Assembly: GCA_000004985.1 (NCBI GenBank)
Contig: GG738849.1
Length of the DNA: 64,000 nucleotides
Source of the DNA: Naegleria gruberi
Lineage: Eukaryota
Reading direction: 5' to 3' (one strand)
The notes below the pieces were generated by a model. It made no database searches, was not told the origin of the DNA, and was given only the letters and a program-made list of their open reading frames with translations. Positions 33,411 to 60,800 of this stretch are shown in pieces (position 1 is the stretch's first letter; every line of letters begins with the position of its first letter). Both the position numbers and the translations under genes were made by a program.

Positions 33411-36400
33411 ATGAGCCTGAACGGAAATGTTACACCTCCTACATCATTATTGAACAACAATAGAAAAAACAAAGTTATTGGTGACGATGATGATGATGAG
33501 GACATGGTGTCCTCCAATAATAATAATAATAACAATAATAACAATAATAACAGTGCTAACGTTTCGCAAGGAGGTTCTGCATCAGCTAATAGTAGAAGGA
33601 AAGAAGAAAAGAAAGTGGTGAAGAGTTATGATGAATCGGAGAGTGCTAGCGATATGGACACAGATTCTGAGTCTGATGTATCGGATACTAGTAATAGTAG
33701 TTCTTCGGGAGAAGAAGAAGAAGGTATGTTAAATAATTATTTAGAAAATTAATAGTGTCATTTTGATATATTAAAAAAACAGAGGATGGATATTTGTGGA
33801 ATATTACTGAAGAAGATGGAAAAGATGTTGCTGTCCGAGGTTATGAGCATAGGTTTGTTTTTAAAAGGGCTATATAATATTTAATATTCTCGGAATTGTT
33901 TTTAATATCATCATCGTTAGAGGCGAAAACAAAAATCCAACTGCACCAGTTATGATGCAAATGAAAAAGTCCAAAAAAATTAATTTTCCAATTACTGTGA
34001 AAGATAACAAGTGTTCTATCGGATTATCTGGGTATTGTATGATAAAGGCGTCACACTGTATGGAGAGCGGATCGTATTATTATGAAGTCAAAATTGAGGA
34101 ATCCGTATCATGTGACACAACCAAACTTCCTGATTATGCAAAACAAAGTCATTATAGATGTGGATGGAGTATGGAGCAAGGATTCGATAAAGCTTGTTGT
34201 GGATACGATAAATACTCATTTAGTTATGGAAGTAGTGACGGAAATTGTTTTCATAAAGGAAAAGGATCTAAATACGGAGAAAAGTTTGGAGTTGGAGACA
34301 TAATTGGATGTTATATTGAAATACCAGATACCTCAACACCCAATATAATTTATGTTGATGGAAGTATGAGTTTAAAAACTGGAGAAGTTTTCAGAACAAA
34401 GATTGCTACATTGGCAGAGAAAATTGTACCAAATAGCAAAATAATCTTCTTCAAAAATGGAAAATTTCAAGGTGTCGCTTTTACTGATATCCCATATGGA
34501 GCATACTTTCCAGCTATTTCACTATATATGAATGCAAGCGTAACAATGAAATTTGAAAAATATCAACTACAATATAACCCTTATGATATCTGCCCAGAAT
34601 ATATTGCTAAAGATTGGAAACCTGTTGGTGATTTGAGACACCGTAATAAGAACACTCAAAAAACTCCAAGAAAGTCAAATTCACAAAACGAATTCAAAAC
34701 TCCACCTAGTATTTCAAAAGGCAACTTGAAAGAGATTGGAAAGGGTGCTTCTAAACAATTTCATCAATCACCATCCCAAAACAGACATTCAAAAATTGCC
34801 TCAGCCACAATTACTGAAAATAAGAAACCAAAAGAAAAGAAGGAAAAATCTGAGAAATCTCATCATCATCATTCCCATTCAGGACATGGTGATAAGAAAA
34901 CTAAAAAAAAGAAGGAACCAAGGCCATCCAATTCAAGTACCACAGATTTGAAAAAACCAGTTACTGATAAGCAGCCTTCTCCTTCTATTGTTATTGAAAA
35001 ACCTCCAATTGAATTACCACCTCCTCCACCTACTGTTTCAGTTGTCACTTCTACTGAAGTTCCAAAAAGTGTTACTGAGAAGAAAGAAAAGAAAAAGAAA
35101 CCAAAGCCTTTAAGGATTATTACAGACGAAACAGACCTACCAAACATTAAGGAAACAAAACCAAAAATTCAAGATTCTCCAAGATTACCACTAACCCCAT
35201 CTAGTTTGAACCAAAGCTCTGACTCTCCTCTTGTCAGAAGTTCCTCTTCCATGTCAAGGGTGCCAAGTTACTCTGATGTTATGCCTCCTTCTCCTGTTCC
35301 TCCACAACCAAAATCAGATCAGCAAAAATCAACAACACCAACTTTGGATAAGAATACTCGTTCTCCTTCCTCTGCAGGCTCATCGTCTTCAATTAGGAAA
35401 TCTAATAGTGGAACCAGTCTAGAAAAGAGTACATCCTCATCGACACCAACTACACCTGCCACTATCTCAACACCAATCTCAGCAACAAGCACTGCCTCTT
35501 CCTCTTCTGCAAGTAACGCAACTACACCTGCAATAATTCCTCCTGTAAATGATGTCATGCCTGTAAATAAGCCATATATAACAAACATGTCTGACAAGCC
35601 TATCGTTCAATCCTCATTTCCTTCGATTGAACAAATTACACCTCAAGCCAAGGAAAGGAAATCTAAACCAAAGTCTGAAGGTTCATCAATCATGGCTAGA
35701 TCAAAAAATTTCACACCAAAGAAAGTATTAGCCAAGAAGGAAGATTCGGTACCTGTAAAAACTGCTCCTAAGAGAAAGGCTCCAAGTAAAGATGAGGAAC
35801 CTGTCATTCATCACCACACAGTTAAGCTTTTGGATCCGAAAGATCTTCAACAGGCAAAGAAAGCTAAACCTACTCCATCTGCTGAGACAACACCTGTGGC
35901 TACTAATGCACCAAGTGAACCAAAGCCATCATCACCAACTAAGAAACGAAAGACAAGCAAGGCTGAAGCAAAAGAACCAAAGGAAACTCCATCATCTACT
36001 AAAACCAAGGACGAAAACAAAAAGATTGATTCTATTGAACAGGTTACTAGTAATGTAAAAGAAGCTATTCCTGAAAGAATTATGGAGACTATTATTCCTA
36101 AACAACAAATTCAACAAACAGTACATAATCCTGTTCAACCAACAGCTGTGAATCAAACCATACAAGATGCCTCTAAAAACATTTTACAGACCTCTCAACA
36201 TTACTCATCACAACTCAATCAGATTAGTCAACCAAATGTGCAAACAGTTCAGCAACCACAACACGTTAGCACGCAACAATCTTCCACTCCTCAATATGAA
36301 AGATCGAATGCAGAACCAGCATATTCATTTTCTAGTTTGCTGTTAGGATCACCAAACACTTCAAAGAGTATACAAGATCAAATAGGTCAAATATCGTCCT

Positions 36401-37809
36401 CTTCCTCAAACAATTTGAATCACCAATCTTCACAGATACCTGTTAATAATAGTAATTTTTACAAAAATACCTCCCAAGTTTCTACTACCGAAAGAAAACA
36501 AGATTGGCCTGTACATCAGTTACAGACACCAAACAGTGTAACAGCAGCAAGCATGGCAAACACATCATCATCAGTTAGAAATATGCAAACAAGCTTGCCG
36601 AATAATGTTCAAGATATGTCACCAAGTTATCAATCTAGAATGTCTCTTGAAAATCTTATGGCTCAAAACAAACATGAAAATTTGAGATTACTGGAACAAA
36701 TTAATACTCTGCCAAAGGATATTCCAAAGCAACCAAATCCAATGCAAGTCTCTACTCCAACAATGACAAGCCATACTCCTTCTTTCCGTGAATTACTCGA
36801 AACACCAAGTAGCTTTAATTCATCCTCCAGTAGTTCACAAATGTCTAATTCCAATAATTTCTTGACTTCTCAATCAAGAAACATACCTTCAACCGTACCA
36901 CAACAGCAACAGAAGGTTGGTAATCCAAATTTTGTAAACTATCAAATTGGTAAGGATCATACCCAAGGATCAAATCTAGGCAATACCAACAACTATTCCA
37001 ACTATCTACAACAACAACAACAACAACAGCAGCAAGCAGTTAATGAAGTGAAGCAATTGAGTCAACAGGTTTCGAATCAAAATATTTCAAATAATTATGG
37101 TCAATATTCCCAACAACAAAGAGGTAACTTCCAAACCAATACTGCCTATTCATCCAATATGAACACTGCCTCACATAATTTCGCACCTCACCACCAAAAT
37201 GTATTGGTCAACAATACTTCTGCCAACAACATGAATGTAAACCAAAATAACATGACCAATATTGCAAGTATGTCAAATATGAATCAAATGACATCAAATT
37301 TGATGAATAGTCAGAATAGCTCCAAATATAATTCTCTTCAAGGTGCTTCTCTCAACTATCCAACCATGAATCAACAATCCCAGCAACAACAAATTACAAG
37401 TTCATATTCAGGAAATATGGGAGGTCAACCAAAGCAAAATATGATGAGCACTTCTCAACAAGCTTTTAATCAACACCAACATTCCCAACAAACATTGTCT
37501 CATAATCAGCAACAACATTCCCAACAACAATACTCTTCGAATAATATTCCAAGAGGTTTTGCACCACAACAAATTAATCCACAGCAACTGGGAAATAGTC
37601 AAATGACCTCTAATCACCAACAACAATCAATGAATGTTGGTAATTCCAATAACAATATGCAACAATTCCTTCCTGGTATGCATCAGCAATTGCCCAATAA
37701 TTCCCACAACTTCCAAAACTACCAACAAAACAATTCACAACAACAACAAAACACTGGGCAACAATCATCTTTCAAATACTCTTACCTCAATAATAATATC
37801 AATAAATAA
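33411..37809 (+). CDS. ASH2-like SPRY-domain protein (Set1/COMPASS subunit homologue) with a C-terminal low-complexity Q/N/S/P tail of about 1000 aa. Exons 33411-33723, 33783-33852 and 33921-37809
   Basis: SPRY core GYCMIKASHCMESGSYYYEVKI...RCGWSMEQGFDKACCGYDKYSFSY...[38 protein letters not shown] compared with human ASH2L [20 protein letters not shown]...RLGWSQPLG...[29 protein letters not shown]. Two introns (59 and 68 nt, phases 1 and 2) link an acidic and poly-N first exon and a 70-nt micro-exon to the SPRY exon. I see no PHD or winged-helix region. Confidence 0.75.
33517..33552 (+). repeat. (AAT/AAC)n microsatellite encoding poly-Asn in ASH2-like exon 1
   Basis: aataataataataataacaataataacaataataac. 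Confidence 0.9.
37008..37039 (+). repeat. (CAA)n(CAG)n microsatellite encoding poly-Gln in the ASH2-like C-terminal tail
   Basis: acaacaacaacaacaacaacagcagcaagcag. Confidence 0.9.
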
Positions 37810-50908: not shown

Positions 50909-52831
50909 ATGTCCTTCTTCTTTCGGAGAGGAAATCGTTCCACTAGTCAAAACAATAATCAGTCATCGGTGGCATCCATAAATTCAACATCGGATGATGA
51001 AGAGGAGGTGGCTACACCATCAATAACAGATCAGAATAAGGTATTAATTTCATCACCACGTTTCCGAAGTAGTAGCCTCTCACAACAGCAAAACAATCAA
51101 AGAACAGACGAAAGAATTGAGATTGCAGTGGAGGGTGATGATAGTGGCACCCCTTCAACTCTATCGAAAGTGGACATTAATAGAGTAGAACAATCGAGTG
51201 GATTATTGGAAATTCCTTCATCTGCCTACAAGAGAAAAATCTCATTCTCTGATGAATCAAGTCCAGAAACAACACCAACAAAAACAGCAACATCAGATAA
51301 TTTGTATAGTTCAGCACTTACTACTAAGGGTAATTATAAAGTGACACCAAATAGTAATAGAAGAGTTTTGAATAAGATTCCTTCCTCTCTCAGATTGGAT
51401 CCAAAAACATTTACAAGGAAGAACTCAACTCCTCAATTATTCACCTCCCCAAGAAATCCTTTATCATTATCTCTCTCTAAATTGAATGAAACAAAAATAT
51501 CATCCGAAAATATAAGCAATGTTGTGCTGAGTAGTAGGAGCTCCTCGCAGCTTGTAGTAATTATTGAAATAGGGAGAAAATATTTCAAGTGTGGAATATC
51601 TGGAGACTATTGCCCAAGAGTAGTTCTTCCTGTACCTTATGAACTTTCAGAAATGTTGTGTAAATGTAAAAATCATAATTTTAATATAGACCACATGAAA
51701 CAAGCCTTTTCCAGTTTTGAAAAAGATATTGGATCTTGTAATATAGAAACTGATGTAATTTTTGATGAGTATACACGAATTGGATTCGGGAACAGTATTG
51801 AAGATGATGCCTATTATGAAGAAAAACTGTCTCACCTTTTGGGAAAACTATTAAAGAGGATATTCATCGATGAACTCAAACTTCATTTGGATAGCATAGA
51901 TCATGTGGTAATTTTGGAGAATGTTTATTCACTACATGAAAATCTAGTGAGGAGAACAGTGGAAGACATGTGCAATAGAAAACGATTTTCCAAACTGAAA
52001 GGAATTAAATTTATCAATGCTCAAAGTTGTGCCCTAATACCTAGCTCTTGCTCGGTAAAATTTCAAACAGCAAATGATAGCAACAAATTGCTTTCTCCAC
52101 CCATCCTAAGTTTGACTTCGAGGAAAGGAAACGAAGAGATGGATGTAAATGGCTTGGTTATTGATTGTGGATTTTCAGAATGTAAAATTGTACCAGTCTT
52201 GTTTGGATGTATTGTGCAGGCTGGTGTGGTAGTTGTTGACACTGGATCAAAACATATTCTTCGACGATTGAAGGACAATTTGATGAAAATGAATCCAAAA
52301 GAATCACTGACACCTCAGCACTGTGACCATGTGGATCTCAATAAGTTATTCTATGAGCATGATGAAGGAGAAATGCTCAAGTATAGCAAACTGATGGATT
52401 GTGAAACAATGCTATTGGAAGATATTTTCACAAGAGTTTGTTATTGTGATGGTGAAGGAGATAATCCACTTGTTCCATTTTCAGATATTATTCAGTATTG
52501 GAATGGCAGGTATTGTATCTCAATTACTGACGCCATCAGAAGAGAGGCTTGTGACATTTTATTTGACCCTCTCATGGAAGGTATTGTGGAAAGTTTGAAA
52601 CGAATTGAAATTGATCCACGATCTAAAATTTTGAAAAACATTCTGGTATGTGGAGGTTTGGCTGAAATTGCTGGTTTCAAAAAGAAGCTCCTTAGAAGTT
52701 TGAGGGATATACTGAGTGAGCGAGATATGACAAGGAGTTGGTTGAAAAACATTGGAATCAATATGGATGATACAGTCTCTCATTCCATTCTCAATTGGTA
52801 TGGTGCCTCAATTATTTCCTCACAATTATAA
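50909..52831 (+). CDS. Divergent actin-related protein (Arp10/11- or Arp8-like) with a Ser-rich N-terminal extension of about 200 aa
   Basis: Actin-fold signatures LVIDCGFSECKIVPVLFG (actin VLDSGDGVTHTVPIYEG) and KNILVCGGLAEIAGFKKKL (actin [20 protein letters not shown]). The rest is highly divergent. Confidence 0.7.
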   Translation: MSFFFRRGNRSTSQNNNQSSVASINSTSDDEEEVATPSITDQNKVLISSPRFRSSSLSQQQNNQRTDERIEIAVEGDDSGTPSTLSKVDINRVEQSSGLLEIPSSAYKRKISFSDESSPETTPTKTATSDNLYSSALTTKGNYKVTPNSNRRVLNKIPSSLRLDPKTFTRKNSTPQLFTSPRNPLSLSLSKLNETKISSENISNVVLSSRSSSQLVVIIEIGRKYFKCGISGDYCPRVVLPVPYELSEMLCKCKNHNFNIDHMKQAFSSFEKDIGSCNIETDVIFDEYTRIGFGNSIEDDAYYEEKLSHLLGKLLKRIFIDELKLHLDSIDHVVILENVYSLHENLVRRTVEDMCNRKRFSKLKGIKFINAQSCALIPSSCSVKFQTANDSNKLLSPPILSLTSRKGNEEMDVNGLVIDCGFSECKIVPVLFGCIVQAGVVVVDTGSKHILRRLKDNLMKMNPKESLTPQHCDHVDLNKLFYEHDEGEMLKYSKLMDCETMLLEDIFTRVCYCDGEGDNPLVPFSDIIQYWNGRYCISITDAIRREACDILFDPLMEGIVESLKRIEIDPRSKILKNILVCGGLAEIAGFKKKLLRSLRDILSERDMTRSWLKNIGINMDDTVSHSILNWYGASIISSQL

Positions 52832-52842
52832 ACATGACATAT

Positions 52843-54210
52843 TTATTTGTATTTAAAAACAATGTCATCAAAGAGTGGATTTTCAAAGCTGGCCTTGATA
52901 AGATCTCCCTTTTCTAATTCTCTTGACTTTCCAGTCATTGTACCACTAGAAATGATTTGACCTGCCAAAACATCACGACCAAATTCACCTGTAATTCTGT
53001 TAATACATTGCAGACAAGTATCTAATGGACCTTTAGTTTCATTTGGATCATATTGACCATTGCAAACGAAACTTCCCTTGGCCTTTGTATCAGATTCACC
53101 ATTCAAGAAGAGTTCAACATTTTCAAATGACAACTTGGCAACTTGTGTCTTATCGAAAGTTGATGGCTTTTCTGGAATGATTAAATTAATATGACCACCC
53201 AAATCAGCAATTCTTGTCAAGACACCTCCATTATTTTCAACATTATCAACTCTTGTACCAATAATTTCTACAACACCTTTAACATGATCCAATGCATCAA
53301 TTAATTCTTCCTTTGTATATGGTTCAGAACGAGCCTTTAAATCCTTAGCCAAAACAAAACCAAATTCAATTTCTACCATTGGTCCAAAGTTTGTCACATC
53401 TTCAACTTGAACAGATTCTGGATTTTTCAAAACTTGATGTTCAAAAATAGGTCCCAAGAATGGTTGCTTGATGTTCAATCTCACCAAAGCCTTTGGTTGA
53501 GTTGCTCCAATTTTCCATCCAACTAATTTCCAACCCTTTTCCTTTTCCAAGAGATCAATCAATCTCAATTGAGCATATTGAGCTTCAGTTTCAGATTTTG
53601 GAAGAATGTTTTGAGGGAATGTTAAAATAGTTCTATTTGCTAATTTTCTCTTTTTGATAGATTTGAAAGCGGCCATTGGTGTAACTTCATCAGGATCAAT
53701 TTTAGAGAGTGCTTCCTTGTTAAATTTGAGAACAGGAACATCTTCATCTTCATTTTGTGGCTTTCTTTCTTTAATTTCATTTTCTAATAACTTTTGAATG
53801 ATTTTATCATCTCTCAATGTAATTTCTTCAATTTGTTCCAAAGCTGATTTTTGTTTAGGATTAGTTTCAAGGAAATCTTGATAATTTTTATATTGAAATT
53901 TCATCAATAATCTTGCAATATATTCAATTCTTTTTTGTTCATCACTATTCCATTTATCTTGTTTAAACCACAATTGGAGTGGCTTTTCAAGTGGTTTATC
54001 AAGAATTTTGTTAATGTACTTTTTCTTTGGACGAGCTTGAGCAACCATTGGTTTTGCTTCTTCAAAGGAAGCAGCAGAAGCATTATCCTGTTGATTGAGA
54101 GTAATTTCCGATCTAGAGAAATTTCTAACAACAACATTGCTGAATAAATACTGTTGTTGTGGCGATGAGGAATTGGATAAAAGCCTTCTGATTGGGAGAG
54201 TTGTTTTCAT
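52843..54210 (-). CDS. 2-keto-4-pentenoate hydratase / 2-oxohept-3-enedioate hydratase family (MhpD/HpcG-like, FAH superfamily) domain fused to an N-terminal extension of about 190 aa with a presequence-like start
   Basis: The C-terminal 260 aa align with E. coli MhpD. [26 protein letters not shown] compared with [39 protein letters not shown] compared with [32 protein letters not shown] compared with [30 protein letters not shown] compared with GDIILTGALGP. The N-terminus [34 protein letters not shown] resembles a mitochondrial targeting peptide. Confidence 0.7.
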   Translation of the reverse strand: [455 protein letters not shown]

Positions 54211-56932: not shown

Positions 56933-57739
56933 TTAAATACAATTTTCTCTAGATGGTTGTGAAATTGGTAATGTACGATGTGTCTTGAGGTTGCTCTTGC
57001 ACTTAAAGTTGGCACTATCTTCAACATACTTGACTTGATGATTGATAATCTTTGGTACTTTGTGTACTTGTGTGCCTGGAATTCTCTTGACTGGTAAAAT
57101 ATCCTTTTCCATAGCTTGTTGTTCTCTCTTCTTTTGTCTATCTATTCTACTCATTTGAGCATTTGCAACATTTCTTCCGTGCTTCAAACGAACAATTGGA
57201 TCCTTCACGAATGGTTCCTCTCCTTCAAAGTGGAATTGAAGTTCTGTTTGTTTGGAAATATCAGCAAGACGTGGAGCAACAACAATATATTTTCTATCAT
57301 ATACTTCATCATGAACAAATTGAACCCAACCATCTCTCAAAGCATGAAGAGTGTAATCCTTTCCTTGAAGAACATTGTATCCTGGCCAATATGTATTTCC
57401 TCTTTGTCTAATAAGAATTTCTCCAGCTTTAACTCTTTCTCCTTGTCTTCTCTTTAAACCTAATCTCTTGGAGTGAGAGTCTTTGGTTTTACTTGTAGAA
57501 CCACCACTCTTCTTGGAAGCGAAACGAAGTTGTGTTTGTTGTTGAGAAATAGAATTAATCAAAAATTGTGAAGTTGATGATGTGGTAGATGATGTTAATG
57601 ATGATGTATTGACTGAGAGTTGGGAGAATAATAAACCCGTGCTATTCAAACGTGGTTTATTAAACACGGAGAGAAGTGACGAGGAACAAAATTTCTTCAT
57701 TTTTTTAAAGAAATAAAAAAATTTAAAATTTATTTTCAA
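56933..57739 (-). CDS. Mitochondrial ribosomal protein bL27m with an N-terminal presequence and a C-terminal extension
   Basis: Core [68 protein letters not shown] compared with bacterial bL27 [63 protein letters not shown]. The start is either ATG 57739 or 57702. Confidence 0.8.
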
Positions 57740-57817: not shown

Positions 57818-60800
57818 TTACCAGTACAAATTTTTGATTTTCAAGTACTTGACCAACAATTTTCTCATTTCATTGACAAAGAGTACCATAAACATCCACG
57901 GAAGAGGATACAACCATGAATCAACTGTTACAGGTCTAAAGCCGAAAATAGCATCATTAATGAACGGAACATAAATCAAAAAGGCAGAAAGAGCAATAGC
58001 AACCACAGCGCCAAGATAGATGTACAAATTGGAGAATAATGGGAAAGTAAATACAAATTCTCTTCTAGTTCTGCAGGAGTACATGTTGACAATTTGACAC
58101 AAAACAATACATAAAAAGTAACTTGTTTGAGCAGTAACCAAAATGTTGCTTTGATCCACTCCACTTAGAGTAATTCCAGTTTCTACAATAAACAATGGTG
58201 TTGATGAAGTGTTTTGGAAATAATTGCCTTGTCTAGCAGCCCACAAATACCTTGGGGGAACTCCATAAAATGCAAATGTGAATATAAAACAAAATATGCC
58301 ACCAAGTGATTCAATTAAACCAGAAACGAGATAACAGAACATGAGTTCAGGAATTCCAATTAGTGACTGCAATTTGTTTCTTGGTGGAATACTCATTAAA
58401 TCATTTTCTGCTTTTTCATAGGCGAGACAAATAGAAGATGCTACTTCAGTACCCAAATCGAGACAAATCATTTGCAAACCTGTCATTGGTACAGGAATAC
58501 CAAAGAACATGAAAGCAATAAATGAAGACATTTCAGGCAAGTTATGGCTTACTGTGTAAACAAGACTCTTCTTTAAATTGTCAAAAATCAATCTACCTTC
58601 TTGAATTCCGTTTACAATTGATGCAAAGTTATCATCCAACAAGATAAGGGCAGCAGCTTCTTTAGAGACAGCAGAACCACTCAAGTTCATTGCAACACCA
58701 ATGTCAGCCTTTTTGAGAGCTGGAGAATCGTTTGTTCCATCTCCTGTTACGGCCACAATATGACCATATTCTTGGAATTTGGAAACAATAAACAACTTTT
58801 GTTGTGGAGAAGTTCTAGCAAATACCAACTGCTTAATTTTCATAATTCCTTTCCAATCTTCATTAGTCAATTGATCTATTTGTTCTCCATGGATAACCAT
58901 AGCTTCAGGTTGAGAGCCATAATTCTGTTCATCCATTTCGTCCAGTATGAGCGCTTTTTGTTCTATGATACCCACTTGTTTGGCAATGGCTTTTGCAGTG
59001 AGAGGGTGATCTCCAGTGACCATGACTACTTGAATACCTCCAGTTTTACACTTGGCAACAGCTTCAGTTACTCCTACCTTTGGAGGATCAGTCAATGCTA
59101 CCATTCCCAAAAATGTCAAATTTTTGGCAAAATCTCTGATATTATCAATATCTCCAGATGGAATTTGTGACTTTGAAATGCTAGTTTGGGCAAATGCCAA
59201 AACTCTACAACCTTTTGATGCAAAAAAGTCATAAGAATCTTGAAAGTTGTTTCTCCAGTTCTCATCCATATCATATTCAACACCAGATATTAAAATTTTG
59301 GAACAAAGAGAAGCAATTCTTTCAGGGGCTCCCTTCATTAACAATAGAGCGTCATCGTTAGGTTGATTAGGAATCTCGTTGATAGTAAGCATCCACTTAT
59401 TCTTTGAACTAAAAGGAATACAATAGAGTTCTTCATGATCTTTTCTAATGCTTTTAAGACTGGCCTTTCCTCTGGATTCTACATACTTAATGAGAGCAAT
59501 TTCTGAGGCATCTCCAAGACATTCTCTTTTCATGATTGGAGTGTTTAAATTTGCTTCATTTTCAAGGAATGTGGCTGTACTACACAAGCTGCAAGCTCTT
59601 TGCAACAACTCTTCAGTAGATAAATTTTGAGGAGCATTACTAGAAGCACCATTGGTTGAAGTCGCGCTTGTGGAGTTATCCATATTGTATGGAATGGTGA
59701 TAACTGAAGAATCAATCCATGCTTCAACAACGGTCATCTTATTTTGTGTGAGTGTTCCAGTCTTGTCAGAACAAATGACTGAAACAGAACCCAATGTTTC
59801 CACATGATCCAGTTTCTTGACAACAATGTTAACCTCTTTCAAACGTTGTGCAGAGATTGAAAGACATGTGGTCACAGTAGCAATTAAACCTGCAGGGATG
59901 CAACCAGTAATTACACCAACTAAAGATGACAGTACTTAGTATTGTATGATGAAATTTGATAACTTACTGCAAAAAATAAAGCTCTGAAACCATGTGAAAC
60001 CAAAGCTCATACATACACAAAAGAAAATAATGCAACAAACAATAGCAATGGTTCCCAATATGAAAACAAATTTGTCAATTTCTCTTCTGATAGGTGTTTT
60101 TCTTTCCTTTTGACCACCTGCCAAGTGAGCAATTTTTCCCATAACTGTCTTGTTTGCTGTTCTAATTACAATTCCAAAACCAAATCCTTCGACAACAGTA
60201 GATCCAAAAAATAGTAAATTAGATGCTTCCAATGGGTTAGGAGCAGTATTTTCAATGGTTCTAGTTTGAGGATCTGATTCTCCAGTCAAAGTACTATTGT
60301 CTACCTTCATACCAGAACTACTGACACATCTTAAATCTGCTGGGATCAAATCACCTGTTGAAATTTTAACAACATCACCAAGGACCAAATCTTCAGCATC
60401 AATCTTTTGTAAAATACCATCTCTAATAACCCAACACGAATTCTTTTGTAACTGTTGAAAACTCTCAATAATTTTCTCTCCCTTTCTTTCTTGAACTAAT
60501 GTTACAATAGCATTGAATAAAACAACCACAAACAATATCAATCCAAGGAAAATATTTGGAATGGATTCAGGTGTTCTTTCGATGATGACGTCAAGAATAC
60601 TCAAAAAACCAGCAATAATCAATACCAAAGAGAATGGAGAAAGAAGTTCCTTGATAACTTTAACTATGAATAAAGTTCTCTTCGGAGGAGCCAGAATATT
60701 CTTACCATCAGTCAACAATCGTTCGGAAACAATTTTAGAGGACAAGCCTTGAGAGTTTTCAGGATGGTGAACATCAAAATTCGTGTCTAAGGACTCAACT

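Follow-up and report, generated by a model that had tools for sequence, protein, structure and literature searches.

NAEGRDRAFT_46154 of Naegleria gruberi: a mitochondrial protein with an MhpD/HpcG-type core and a phenylalanine at the hydratase aspartate position

The locus described here raises the question of what a protein with a catalytic core of the bacterial MhpD/HpcG type does in the mitochondria of a microbial eukaryote. The window, a stretch of 64,000 nucleotides of Naegleria gruberi DNA (contig GG738849.1, assembly GCA_000004985.1), contains at positions 52843-54210 on the minus strand a single unbroken open reading frame (ORF) of 455 amino acids, running from an ATG start to a TAA stop (coordinates checked against the ORF list). 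Its product is identical over the full length (100%) to XP_002681791.1 / EFC49047.1 / NAEGRDRAFT_46154 / UniProt D2V2F2, which is encoded in nuclear DNA on an 850-kb scaffold. A literature search by these accessions returned no paper discussing NAEGRDRAFT_46154. Based on the results presented below, it is a real protist variant of a known enzyme fold and probably not the hydratase that its database name says. The gene, its catalytic core and the active-site codons are located as follows.

52843..54210, minus strand: complete single-exon coding sequence of NAEGRDRAFT_46154 / XP_002681791.1 (455 codons plus TAA), from the ORF list and 100% identity and coverage against the annotated protein.
52846..53625, minus strand: catalytic core with the fumarylacetoacetate-hydrolase (FAH) fold, of the MhpD/HpcG/4-oxalocrotonate-decarboxylase (4-OD) type, residues 196-455, from sequence matches, AlphaFold2 and Foldseek.
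53512..53514, minus strand: Lys233, within GWKIGAT, corresponding to MhpD Lys60; conserved as Lys in 151 of 155 relatives.
53458..53460, minus strand: Phe251, aligned with MhpD Asp78; 115 of 155 relatives also have Phe here and the others Ile, Val, Met, Tyr or Leu.
53365..53373, minus strand: Glu280-x-Glu282, equivalents of the MhpD metal ligands Glu105 and Glu107; Glu in 152 and 153 of 155 relatives, respectively.
53266..53268, minus strand: Glu315, the equivalent of Glu138, the third metal ligand of MhpD; the only invariant column of a 115-sequence alignment.

By BLASTP, the core is 25% identical to E. coli MhpD over 253 columns (E 1e-13); hhalign relates the two with a probability of 98.6% (E 6e-16), and the NCBIfam MhpD model matches the protein at E 3.4e-14. 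When the family profile was run against all sequences of the PDB, MhpD scored 133 bits (E 1.3e-37), HpcG 119 bits, the 8ih6 hydratase 107.5 bits and the 4-OD NahK 104 bits. Among the other branches of the FAH superfamily, yeast Ynl168c (1nkq) reached 33 bits and human FAHD1 (6fog) only 16.9 bits (E 0.034). The AlphaFold2 model, built from 115 sequences and superseding a 6-sequence run with a predicted local distance difference test score (pLDDT) of 51, has core pLDDT values of 85-98 (means over ten-residue blocks). All 50 listed Foldseek matches of this model are FAH-fold proteins, and the 20 best are without exception MhpD, HpcG, NahK and the hydratase and decarboxylase chains of 8ih6 (8ih6, 5d2f, 5d2i, 2eb4-6, 1sv6 and 2wqt), with target template-modelling (TM) scores of 0.80-0.85 and E values of 1e-16 to 1e-19. 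FAHD1, YisK and others are clearly set apart from these, at E 1e-10 or weaker (FAHD1 approximately 1e-8). FAHD1 and FAHD2 (PDB 6fog and 6sbi; yeast 1nkq) resemble the Naegleria protein in superfamily fold and mitochondrial location; however, they belong to another branch, with 17-33 bits against 104-133 for MhpD, HpcG and NahK and target-TM scores of 0.58-0.71 against 0.80-0.85. The preliminary description of this DNA had assigned the domain to the bacterial MhpD/HpcG type rather than to FAHD1/FAHD2, and both the profile and the structural comparison bear this out; neither groups the protein with FAHD1/FAHD2.

The closest named proteins, both by sequence and in structure, are E. coli MhpD (PDB 1sv6, 2wqt) and HpcG/HpaH (PDB 2eb4-6), whose assemblies are pentamer-based and whose fold matches that of the Naegleria protein with target-TM scores of 0.81-0.85. 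They have in common with it the GxK-G-T motif, the metal triad of Glu-x-Glu and Glu, and the equivalents of Arg143 and Asp157. On the other hand, the Naegleria protein is only 25% identical to them and lies far under the equivalog thresholds; it has Phe for Asp78 and Trp for Arg59; and it is eukaryotic, adding a mitochondrial presequence, a segment before helix alpha1 (pre-alpha1 segment) and an insertion of approximately 90 residues after alpha1, and having no meta-cleavage operon partners. Similarly, the bacterial 4-ODs (NahK, PDB 5d2f/5d2i; chain 8ih6_F) have the same fold and metal site and also a hydrophobic residue at the hydratase Asp position, which is Ile there and Phe here. The bacterial enzyme acts together with a paralogous hydratase in one complex, of which 8ih6 is an example, whereas only one family member was found for N. 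gruberi.

The active site was compared across the relatives found in an exhaustive HMMER search of 1.84 billion representatives, which returned 1,984 sequences at E <= 0.001; residue conservation was counted over the 155 closest. The 150 best relatives have a common signature, G-W-K-[IV]-G-A-T ... P-F-x-G, where MhpD reads G-R-K-V-G-L-T and P-D-F-G. The equivalents of Lys60, Glu105, Glu107, Glu138, Arg143 (Arg320) and Asp157 (Asp336) are each kept in at least 141 of the 155, and the Glu triad, the Lys, Arg320 and Asp336 are kept throughout the eukaryote-like clade described below and its bacterial relatives. The column of MhpD Asp78 (HpcG position 79) behaves differently. It holds Asp, within QPDFG or EPDYG, in all three solved hydratases (MhpD, 8ih6_A and HpcG) and Ile in both solved decarboxylases (NahK and 8ih6_F), while Q-P-D-F-G of MhpD reads Q-P-F-L-G in the Naegleria protein and Phe251 is invariant among the six closest family members. 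The hydratase Asp is also absent from the free-standing bacterial members. An earlier statement that the domain aligns with MhpD motif by motif is thus correct as regards domain homology and fails at this motif, where Asp78 has become Phe251.

The NCBIfam equivalog models of MhpD, HpaH, DmpE and DmpH give scores of 37-53 bits against cut-offs of 350-409. The hydratase models NF008461, TIGR03220 and TIGR02312 score 52.8 against 350, 41.6 against 408.8 and 49.8 against 351.5, respectively, and the decarboxylase model TIGR03218 (DmpH/XylI/NahK) scores 37 bits against 350.55, the lowest of the four. Judged by these models, the Naegleria protein is no MhpD equivalog. In work on HpcG, the hydratase Asp was reportedly proposed as the water-activating base, and a study of NahK is said to be a source on the roles of the catalytic residues. 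Because the Asp proposed as the water-activating base is replaced, canonical hydratase chemistry is improbable for the family; for the Naegleria protein itself, it may well be that this chemistry is not used, a judgement that we regard as evenly poised. The loss of the Asp speaks against hydratase chemistry and does not name the actual reaction, so the protein is not assigned as a decarboxylase here.

The location of the protein is documented in published proteomic data. Sheet 1 of Supplementary Data 2 of Horvathova et al. 2021 (Nat Commun 12:2947; PMC8134430) places NAEGRDRAFT_46154 in the mitochondrial cluster of 946 proteins, which was defined by 376 markers. It is listed there with 24 unique peptides, 55.2% coverage and log2 label-free quantification intensities of 25.66, 28.07 and 29.53, which climb towards the densest, most mitochondria-enriched fraction. 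The same table gives targeting predictions of 43 (PSORT II), 84 (MultiLoc) and 89 (TargetP), a best BLAST match in Azospirillum and functional category 18, and the adjoining entries of the table are mostly marked 'unk'. The mitochondrial role that had been proposed from the letters alone agrees with this table in both cluster membership and the TargetP and MultiLoc values. Considering the fold and the location together, we are confident that the core belongs to the MhpD/HpcG/4-OD branch of the FAH superfamily and that the protein is mitochondrial.

Approximately 195 residues precede the core, in keeping with the roughly 190 extra N-terminal residues noted previously, and they begin with a basic, Ser-rich, acid-free stretch in which the first acidic residue is E35. 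According to the identity to N. gruberi of four other heterolobosean sequences (those of N. lovaniensis, N. fowleri and Willaertia magna and a Naegleria-like one of environmental origin), this region is divided as follows.

54109..54210, minus strand: residues 1-34, predicted cleavable mitochondrial presequence; 18-38% identity; four Arg, one Lys and no acidic residue, net charge +5.
54055..54108, minus strand: residues 35-52, poorly conserved linker; 11-33% identity between Naegleria and Willaertia sequences; pLDDT below 50.
53947..54054, minus strand: residues 53-88, pre-alpha1 segment, characteristic of the eukaryote-like clade; the heterolobosean sequences are 69-81% identical here, with 20 invariant residues out of 36.
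53899..53946, minus strand: residues 89-104, helix alpha1 of the MhpD-type fold, from alignment and HMMER; 81-88% identity; pLDDT approximately 90.
53626..53898, minus strand: residues 105-195, insertion separating alpha1 from the core, helical and rich in Lys/Glu, from alignment gaps; 42-71% identity within the Naegleria/Willaertia clade.

The core itself (residues 196-455) is 68-77% identical to that of N. gruberi in the same sequences. The presequence ends in a conserved R-x-F-S motif of the R-3 type, which reads RNFS, RSFS or RHFS in the orthologues. A variable, basic stretch followed by a conserved region would be expected where a mitochondrial presequence is cleaved from a constrained mature protein, and the cleavage site proposed here is a predicted one.

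The remainder of the N-terminal region does not fit the earlier picture of a domain simply fused to 190 foreign residues, since it includes the fold's own alpha1 followed by a lineage-specific insertion. HMMER places the alpha1 helix of the relative P0017 at position 4 of a profile made from full-length bacterial members of approximately 260 residues. When Naegleria residues ~105-190 are deleted, the match gains 3-7 bits and starts at this same position of the profile; no such gain is seen with a control helix. Because both the placement of P0017 and the deletion reach profile position 4, residues 89-104 are identified as alpha1 of the fold. Its motif is common to all 12 members of the eukaryote-like clade, reading KR-x-EYAAR-x-F or KKLDYASKAF in the more distant relatives, and the pre-alpha1 segment is recognisable in P0010, P0006 and P0011. 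The insertion, for which AlphaFold2 predicts helices at residues 110-116, 123-148, 165-170 and 178-187 (pLDDT 58-84), is found in this form only in the Naegleria/Willaertia clade, P0005/6/10 carrying a shorter version and P0011/13/16/17 lacking it. No Pfam match was found for the presequence, the pre-alpha1 segment or the insertion. By alignment, the truly added parts are the presequence, the pre-alpha1 segment of approximately 35 residues and the insertion.

Based on the results presented above, we lean towards the view that NAEGRDRAFT_46154 is a nuclear-encoded, mitochondrion-targeted, divalent-metal-dependent enzyme of the MhpD/HpcG/4-OD branch that carries out a 2-oxo-acid reaction other than the hydratase reaction. 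The N-terminal 32-34 residues or so would direct import and would be cut off after the R-x-F-S motif. The mature protein would bind Mg2+ or Mn2+ through Glu280, Glu282 and Glu315, the metal would chelate the 2-oxo-carboxylate end of a small 2-oxo-acid, and Lys233 would stabilise the enolate. Decarboxylation or tautomerisation/isomerisation (keto-enol or allylic) of such an acid would be likelier than hydration of 2-oxopent-4-enoate. The enzyme is expected to be soluble within the mitochondrion; the pre-alpha1 segment and the insertion of approximately 90 residues would be lineage-specific additions under purifying selection, and a role for them in oligomer or partner contacts is a guess.

Several observations weigh against this proposal. 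The Naegleria protein has no match to Pfam PF01557 (FAA_hydrolase) at E <= 0.01; its relatives P0018, P0039 and P0048 pass this model with 46-50 bits against a cut-off of 23.9, and the miss reflects divergence and not another fold. The loss of the Asp is an argument from a single column. Only three columns discriminate hydratases from decarboxylases, and the family resembles the hydratases at one of these and is classed as 'other' at the remaining two; the decarboxylase state is matched exactly at none of the three, Phe251 standing against Ile in NahK and 8ih6_F. In addition, the decarboxylase model of NCBIfam scores, if anything, below the hydratase models. The catalytic roles given to the equivalents of MhpD Lys60 and Asp78 are those reportedly proposed in the work on HpcG and NahK. 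Finally, co-fractionation admits some contamination, and the authors of the proteome describe their set in it as 'putative' (PMC8134430).

The strongest competing explanation, in line with BLAST-based annotations, is that the protein is a genuine 2-keto-4-pentenoate (2-hydroxypentadienoate) hydratase, serving an aromatic or related meta-cleavage pathway of which a remnant persists in the mitochondrion. Its best named matches are indeed the hydratase models and structures of MhpD, HpaH and DmpE, the label that the Joint Genome Institute (JGI) gives to relatives is '2-keto-4-pentenoate hydratase', and the metal ligands and the Lys are intact. However, scores of 42-53 bits fall far short of the hydratase cut-offs of 350-409, and the residue that is Asp in all three solved hydratases is Phe here and hydrophobic in nearly all of the 155 closest relatives. 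The surroundings of the gene also argue against such a pathway. Among the ORFs of at least 150 amino acids between 42 and 64 kb of the window, there is no catabolic-pathway domain and no aldolase, dehydrogenase (acetaldehyde dehydrogenase included), dioxygenase, hydrolase or ring-cleavage partner (the remaining genome was not searched), so that the gene stands isolated from pathway genes between an Arp-like and an F-box/LRR gene, as had been described. The bacterial subfamily to which the protein is related likewise has no conserved catabolic neighbourhood in 50 loci. We therefore consider a genuine hydratase unlikely.

A second alternative is that the protein is the heterolobosean counterpart of FAHD1, the mitochondrial oxaloacetate decarboxylase/tautomerase, either as its orthologue or as a functional replacement from another FAH branch. 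Superfamily fold and compartment are those of FAHD1, and decarboxylase chemistry would be compatible with the missing hydratase Asp. Moreover, no 'fumarylacetoacetate/FAHD' entry occurs among the listed rows of the N. gruberi mitochondrial proteome (PMC8134430), although a separate FAHD1 gene was not searched for. Orthology, on the other hand, is excluded by the scores (17 bits, E 0.03, for FAHD1 against 133 for MhpD; Foldseek approximately 1e-8 against 1e-19), and functional analogy is pure conjecture, which makes this explanation quite improbable. A review of the superfamily (PMC7116474) names FAH, FAHD1 and FAHD2 as the only described eukaryotic members; since these three are the only ones it names, the Naegleria lineage is additional to them as far as that account extends.

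It could also be supposed that the fold has been repurposed without catalysis and now serves a mitochondrial complex, as one of its structural subunits or in its assembly, with the N-terminal additions as the functional part of the protein. Residues 53-104 are conserved as much as or above the core (69-88% against 68-77%), the hydratase Asp has been lost and the gene stands alone. Against this, the Glu triad, the Lys, Arg320 and Asp336 are retained in the clade and in its bacterial relatives, which would not be expected of a dead enzyme. In addition, the Asp is already gone in the free-standing bacterial members, so its loss is not tied to eukaryotic repurposing. An inactive protein is accordingly very unlikely.

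A recent bacterial transfer or an assembly contaminant, suggested by the bacterial-type domain and by the published best BLAST match in Azospirillum (PMC8134430), is refuted to the point of being negligible by the position of the gene within an 850-kb scaffold among eukaryotic neighbours, with convergent stop codons 11 bp apart, by a GC content like that of the surroundings, by the presequence and the eukaryote-specific insertions, by orthologues in N. fowleri, N. lovaniensis and Willaertia, by the peptides recovered from amoeba organelles (PMC8134430), and by an identity of only 22-36% to any bacterial sequence found. The gene is a native eukaryotic one, with the GC content (0.33, against 0.345 for the window) and the neighbours of its surroundings and with orthologues in three further heterolobosean species.

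The only named orthologues found, with 64-73% identity, are those of N. lovaniensis, N. fowleri and Willaertia magna. Further sequences of the same architecture were obtained in the exhaustive HMMER search (P0005/P0006/P0010, P0011, P0013/P0014 and P0016/P0017), and these other eukaryote-like relatives are 25-41% identical to the Naegleria protein. The metagenomic contig carrying P0010 (L003, 26 kb) is plainly eukaryotic, with genes for histone H2A, a mitochondrial carrier, AIF and WD40/IFT-like proteins. A homologue search with the trimmed alignment gave 14 proteins, none of them from a named eukaryote besides Naegleria and Willaertia. No animal or fungal homologue of the MhpD-type branch was found, and no such protein is listed in the mitochondrial-proteome supplements of Andalucia godoyi.

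In neighbour-joining (NJ) trees of 232-233 columns of the catalytic domain only, the 12 eukaryote-like sequences (Naegleria, Willaertia and environmental protists) form one clade, with bootstrap support of 92% for 150 taxa and 90% for 215 taxa. Within it, Naegleria/Willaertia with P0005/6/10 and P0011 and, separately, P0013/14 with P0016/17 are each supported at 99%. Because the pre-alpha1 segment is common to the 12 sequences, the clade has support independent of the trees. It is nested in a stand-alone bacterial subfamily that is mostly alphaproteobacterial among labelled genomes. About three quarters of the labelled prokaryotes carrying the pattern GWK[IV]GAT[QND][PDA] are Alphaproteobacteria (Rhodospirillales, Hwanghaeella, Thalassobaculum, Rhodoblastus and Geminicoccaceae), and a few are Dehalococcoidia, Acidimicrobiia, Burkholderiales and Flavobacteriaceae; the pattern used in this genome scan is narrow and biases the taxonomic make-up of the labelled sample. 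Bacterial relatives are 22-36% identical to the Naegleria protein. An alphaproteobacterial, even an endosymbiotic, origin is compatible with these results, in which the sample is biased by the pattern and the sister group is not resolved by NJ. The proposal of an old horizontal acquisition therefore stands in one part: the acquisition is old, given the orthologues in N. fowleri, N. lovaniensis and Willaertia magna and the 25-41% identical eukaryote-like relatives, but horizontal transfer is indistinguishable from endosymbiotic gene transfer when the relatives in a biased sample are mostly Alphaproteobacteria.

The nearest prokaryotic relatives are the bacterial subfamily with the motif GWK[IV]GAT ... 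PF-x-G (e.g., P0015, P0018 and P0051). Its members are like the Naegleria protein in having Trp before the Lys, a hydrophobic residue in place of Asp78, and genes that stand alone; they differ in being only ~260 residues long, without the presequence, the pre-alpha1 segment or the insertion. Their scores of 70-144 bits are below every NCBIfam equivalog cut-off. The loci examined are 61 GTDB loci (L009-L069), and no conserved gene neighbourhood was found, no neighbour family occurring in more than 7 of 50 bacterial loci. One member, P0015 (L008, 8001-8780), adjoins genes for an aldehyde dehydrogenase, a CoA-transferase and an enoyl-CoA hydratase, an arrangement that is not general. Because the subfamily is without the hydratase Asp, lies under the equivalog cut-offs and has no conserved meta-cleavage neighbourhood, the name '2-keto-4-pentenoate hydratase', which its members bear or would be given, is probably a systematic misnomer.

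The distribution of longer forms hints at a wider eukaryotic occurrence of the enzyme. In the point-estimate NJ tree, 25 of the 32 sequences with at least 20 extra N-terminal residues fall in one clade of 34 taxa around the 12 eukaryote-like sequences (hypergeometric P 4e-19); this exact clade was never recovered in bootstraps, although long forms were still enriched approximately four-fold among the first-joining taxa. A crude presequence charge criterion was passed by 20 of 42 long forms, compared to 4 of 101 proteins of bacterial length. Poly(A) tails, sought on two short contigs with long-form relatives, gave negative or uninformative results. Separately, 11 members of the same subfamily from SRA and metagenome assemblies (P0019, P0025, P0028, P0029, P0032, P0047, P0062, P0072, P0081, P0096 and P0146; two on L070 and L071) are 290-360 residues long and have Arg/Ala/Ser-rich, acid-poor leaders of 25-70 residues, such as MRAIRGARVLSRAFSTRSS; they tend to group around the Naegleria clade in NJ trees. 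These may be organelle-targeted versions from other microbial eukaryotes. A related sequence, P0044, is present in MMETSP. In the clade itself, the called 549-residue product of P0014 (L004, 1598-3247) opens with approximately 95 residues that look like translated upstream sequence (a THTHT repeat and hydrophobic junk), after which a plausible start, MLLRRLLPFPAKSTR, follows; the 5' end of this gene model is probably called too far upstream.

These observations can be combined, tentatively, into a broader possibility. The pre-alpha1 segment, the loss of the Asp and the presequence might together mark an undescribed, deep-branching mitochondrial MhpD-like family of microbial eukaryotes, derived from a single ancient alphaproteobacterial acquisition, possibly from the mitochondrial ancestor, retained patchily (in Heterolobosea and several unsequenced or environmental lineages) and catalysing a non-hydratase 2-oxo-acid reaction. 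If this were true, the Naegleria protein would be the first named representative of the family, acting on a 2-oxo-acid that is handled otherwise in animals and fungi. The fold, the superfamily branch and, from the supplementary table (PMC8134430), the mitochondrial location are already known; what is new is that the eukaryote-like sequences form a distinct clade with an N-terminal architecture of their own, that the hydratase Asp is lost and that the lineage lies beyond FAH, FAHD1 and FAHD2. Some protists send a member of a branch associated with bacterial aromatic catabolism to their mitochondria, in N. gruberi with conserved additions and in an abundance sufficient for 24 peptides. The gene is a clonable candidate for an unassigned step of protist mitochondrial 2-oxo-acid metabolism, with an orthologue in the pathogen N. 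fowleri, and broader mechanistic consequences would follow only once the substrate is found. The comparison also draws attention to a large bacterial subfamily to which the name '2-keto-4-pentenoate hydratase' is routinely misapplied.

With respect to the immediate neighbours, an actin-related-protein gene is convergent with NAEGRDRAFT_46154, and because the two stop codons lie 11 bp apart on opposite strands, the 3' untranslated regions of the two genes must overlap. The F-box/LRR gene is divergent and lies 270 bp upstream. The Arp-like ORF (50909-52831, plus strand) has a Ser/Asn/Gln-rich low-complexity N-terminus of approximately 215 residues, and its Actin match is weak and partial (60.8 bits, residues 216-513). 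Further ORFs of at least 150 amino acids in the 42-64 kb interval correspond to a TrkH-type transporter, one WD40 and one TALE homeobox protein, a mitochondrial-type bL27 and a P-type ATPase.

Three further features of the window were recorded. The ORF at 56933-57739 (minus strand, 268 amino acids) has a bacterial-type Ribosomal_L27 domain at residues 74-153 (E 4.5e-28) behind an N-terminal extension of approximately 70 residues and probably represents the nuclear bL27 gene of the mitochondrial ribosome; it lies three genes from NAEGRDRAFT_46154 and is likewise a gene for a mitochondrial protein. The ORFs at 59936-60745 and 57818-59875, both on the minus strand, correspond to the N-terminal half (Cation_ATPase_N, E1-E2_ATPase) and the C-terminal half (Cation_ATPase_C, Hydrolase) of a P-type cation ATPase, and with a gap of only ~60 nt between them they look like one gene split by a short intron. 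The strongest strand skew of the window, at 36-38 kb (GC skew -0.32, AT skew +0.23), overlaps a 1,285-residue ORF (33952-37809, plus strand) whose C-terminal ~1,000 residues are of Ser/Thr/Pro/Gln/Asn-rich low complexity, and this skew is an effect of coding composition.

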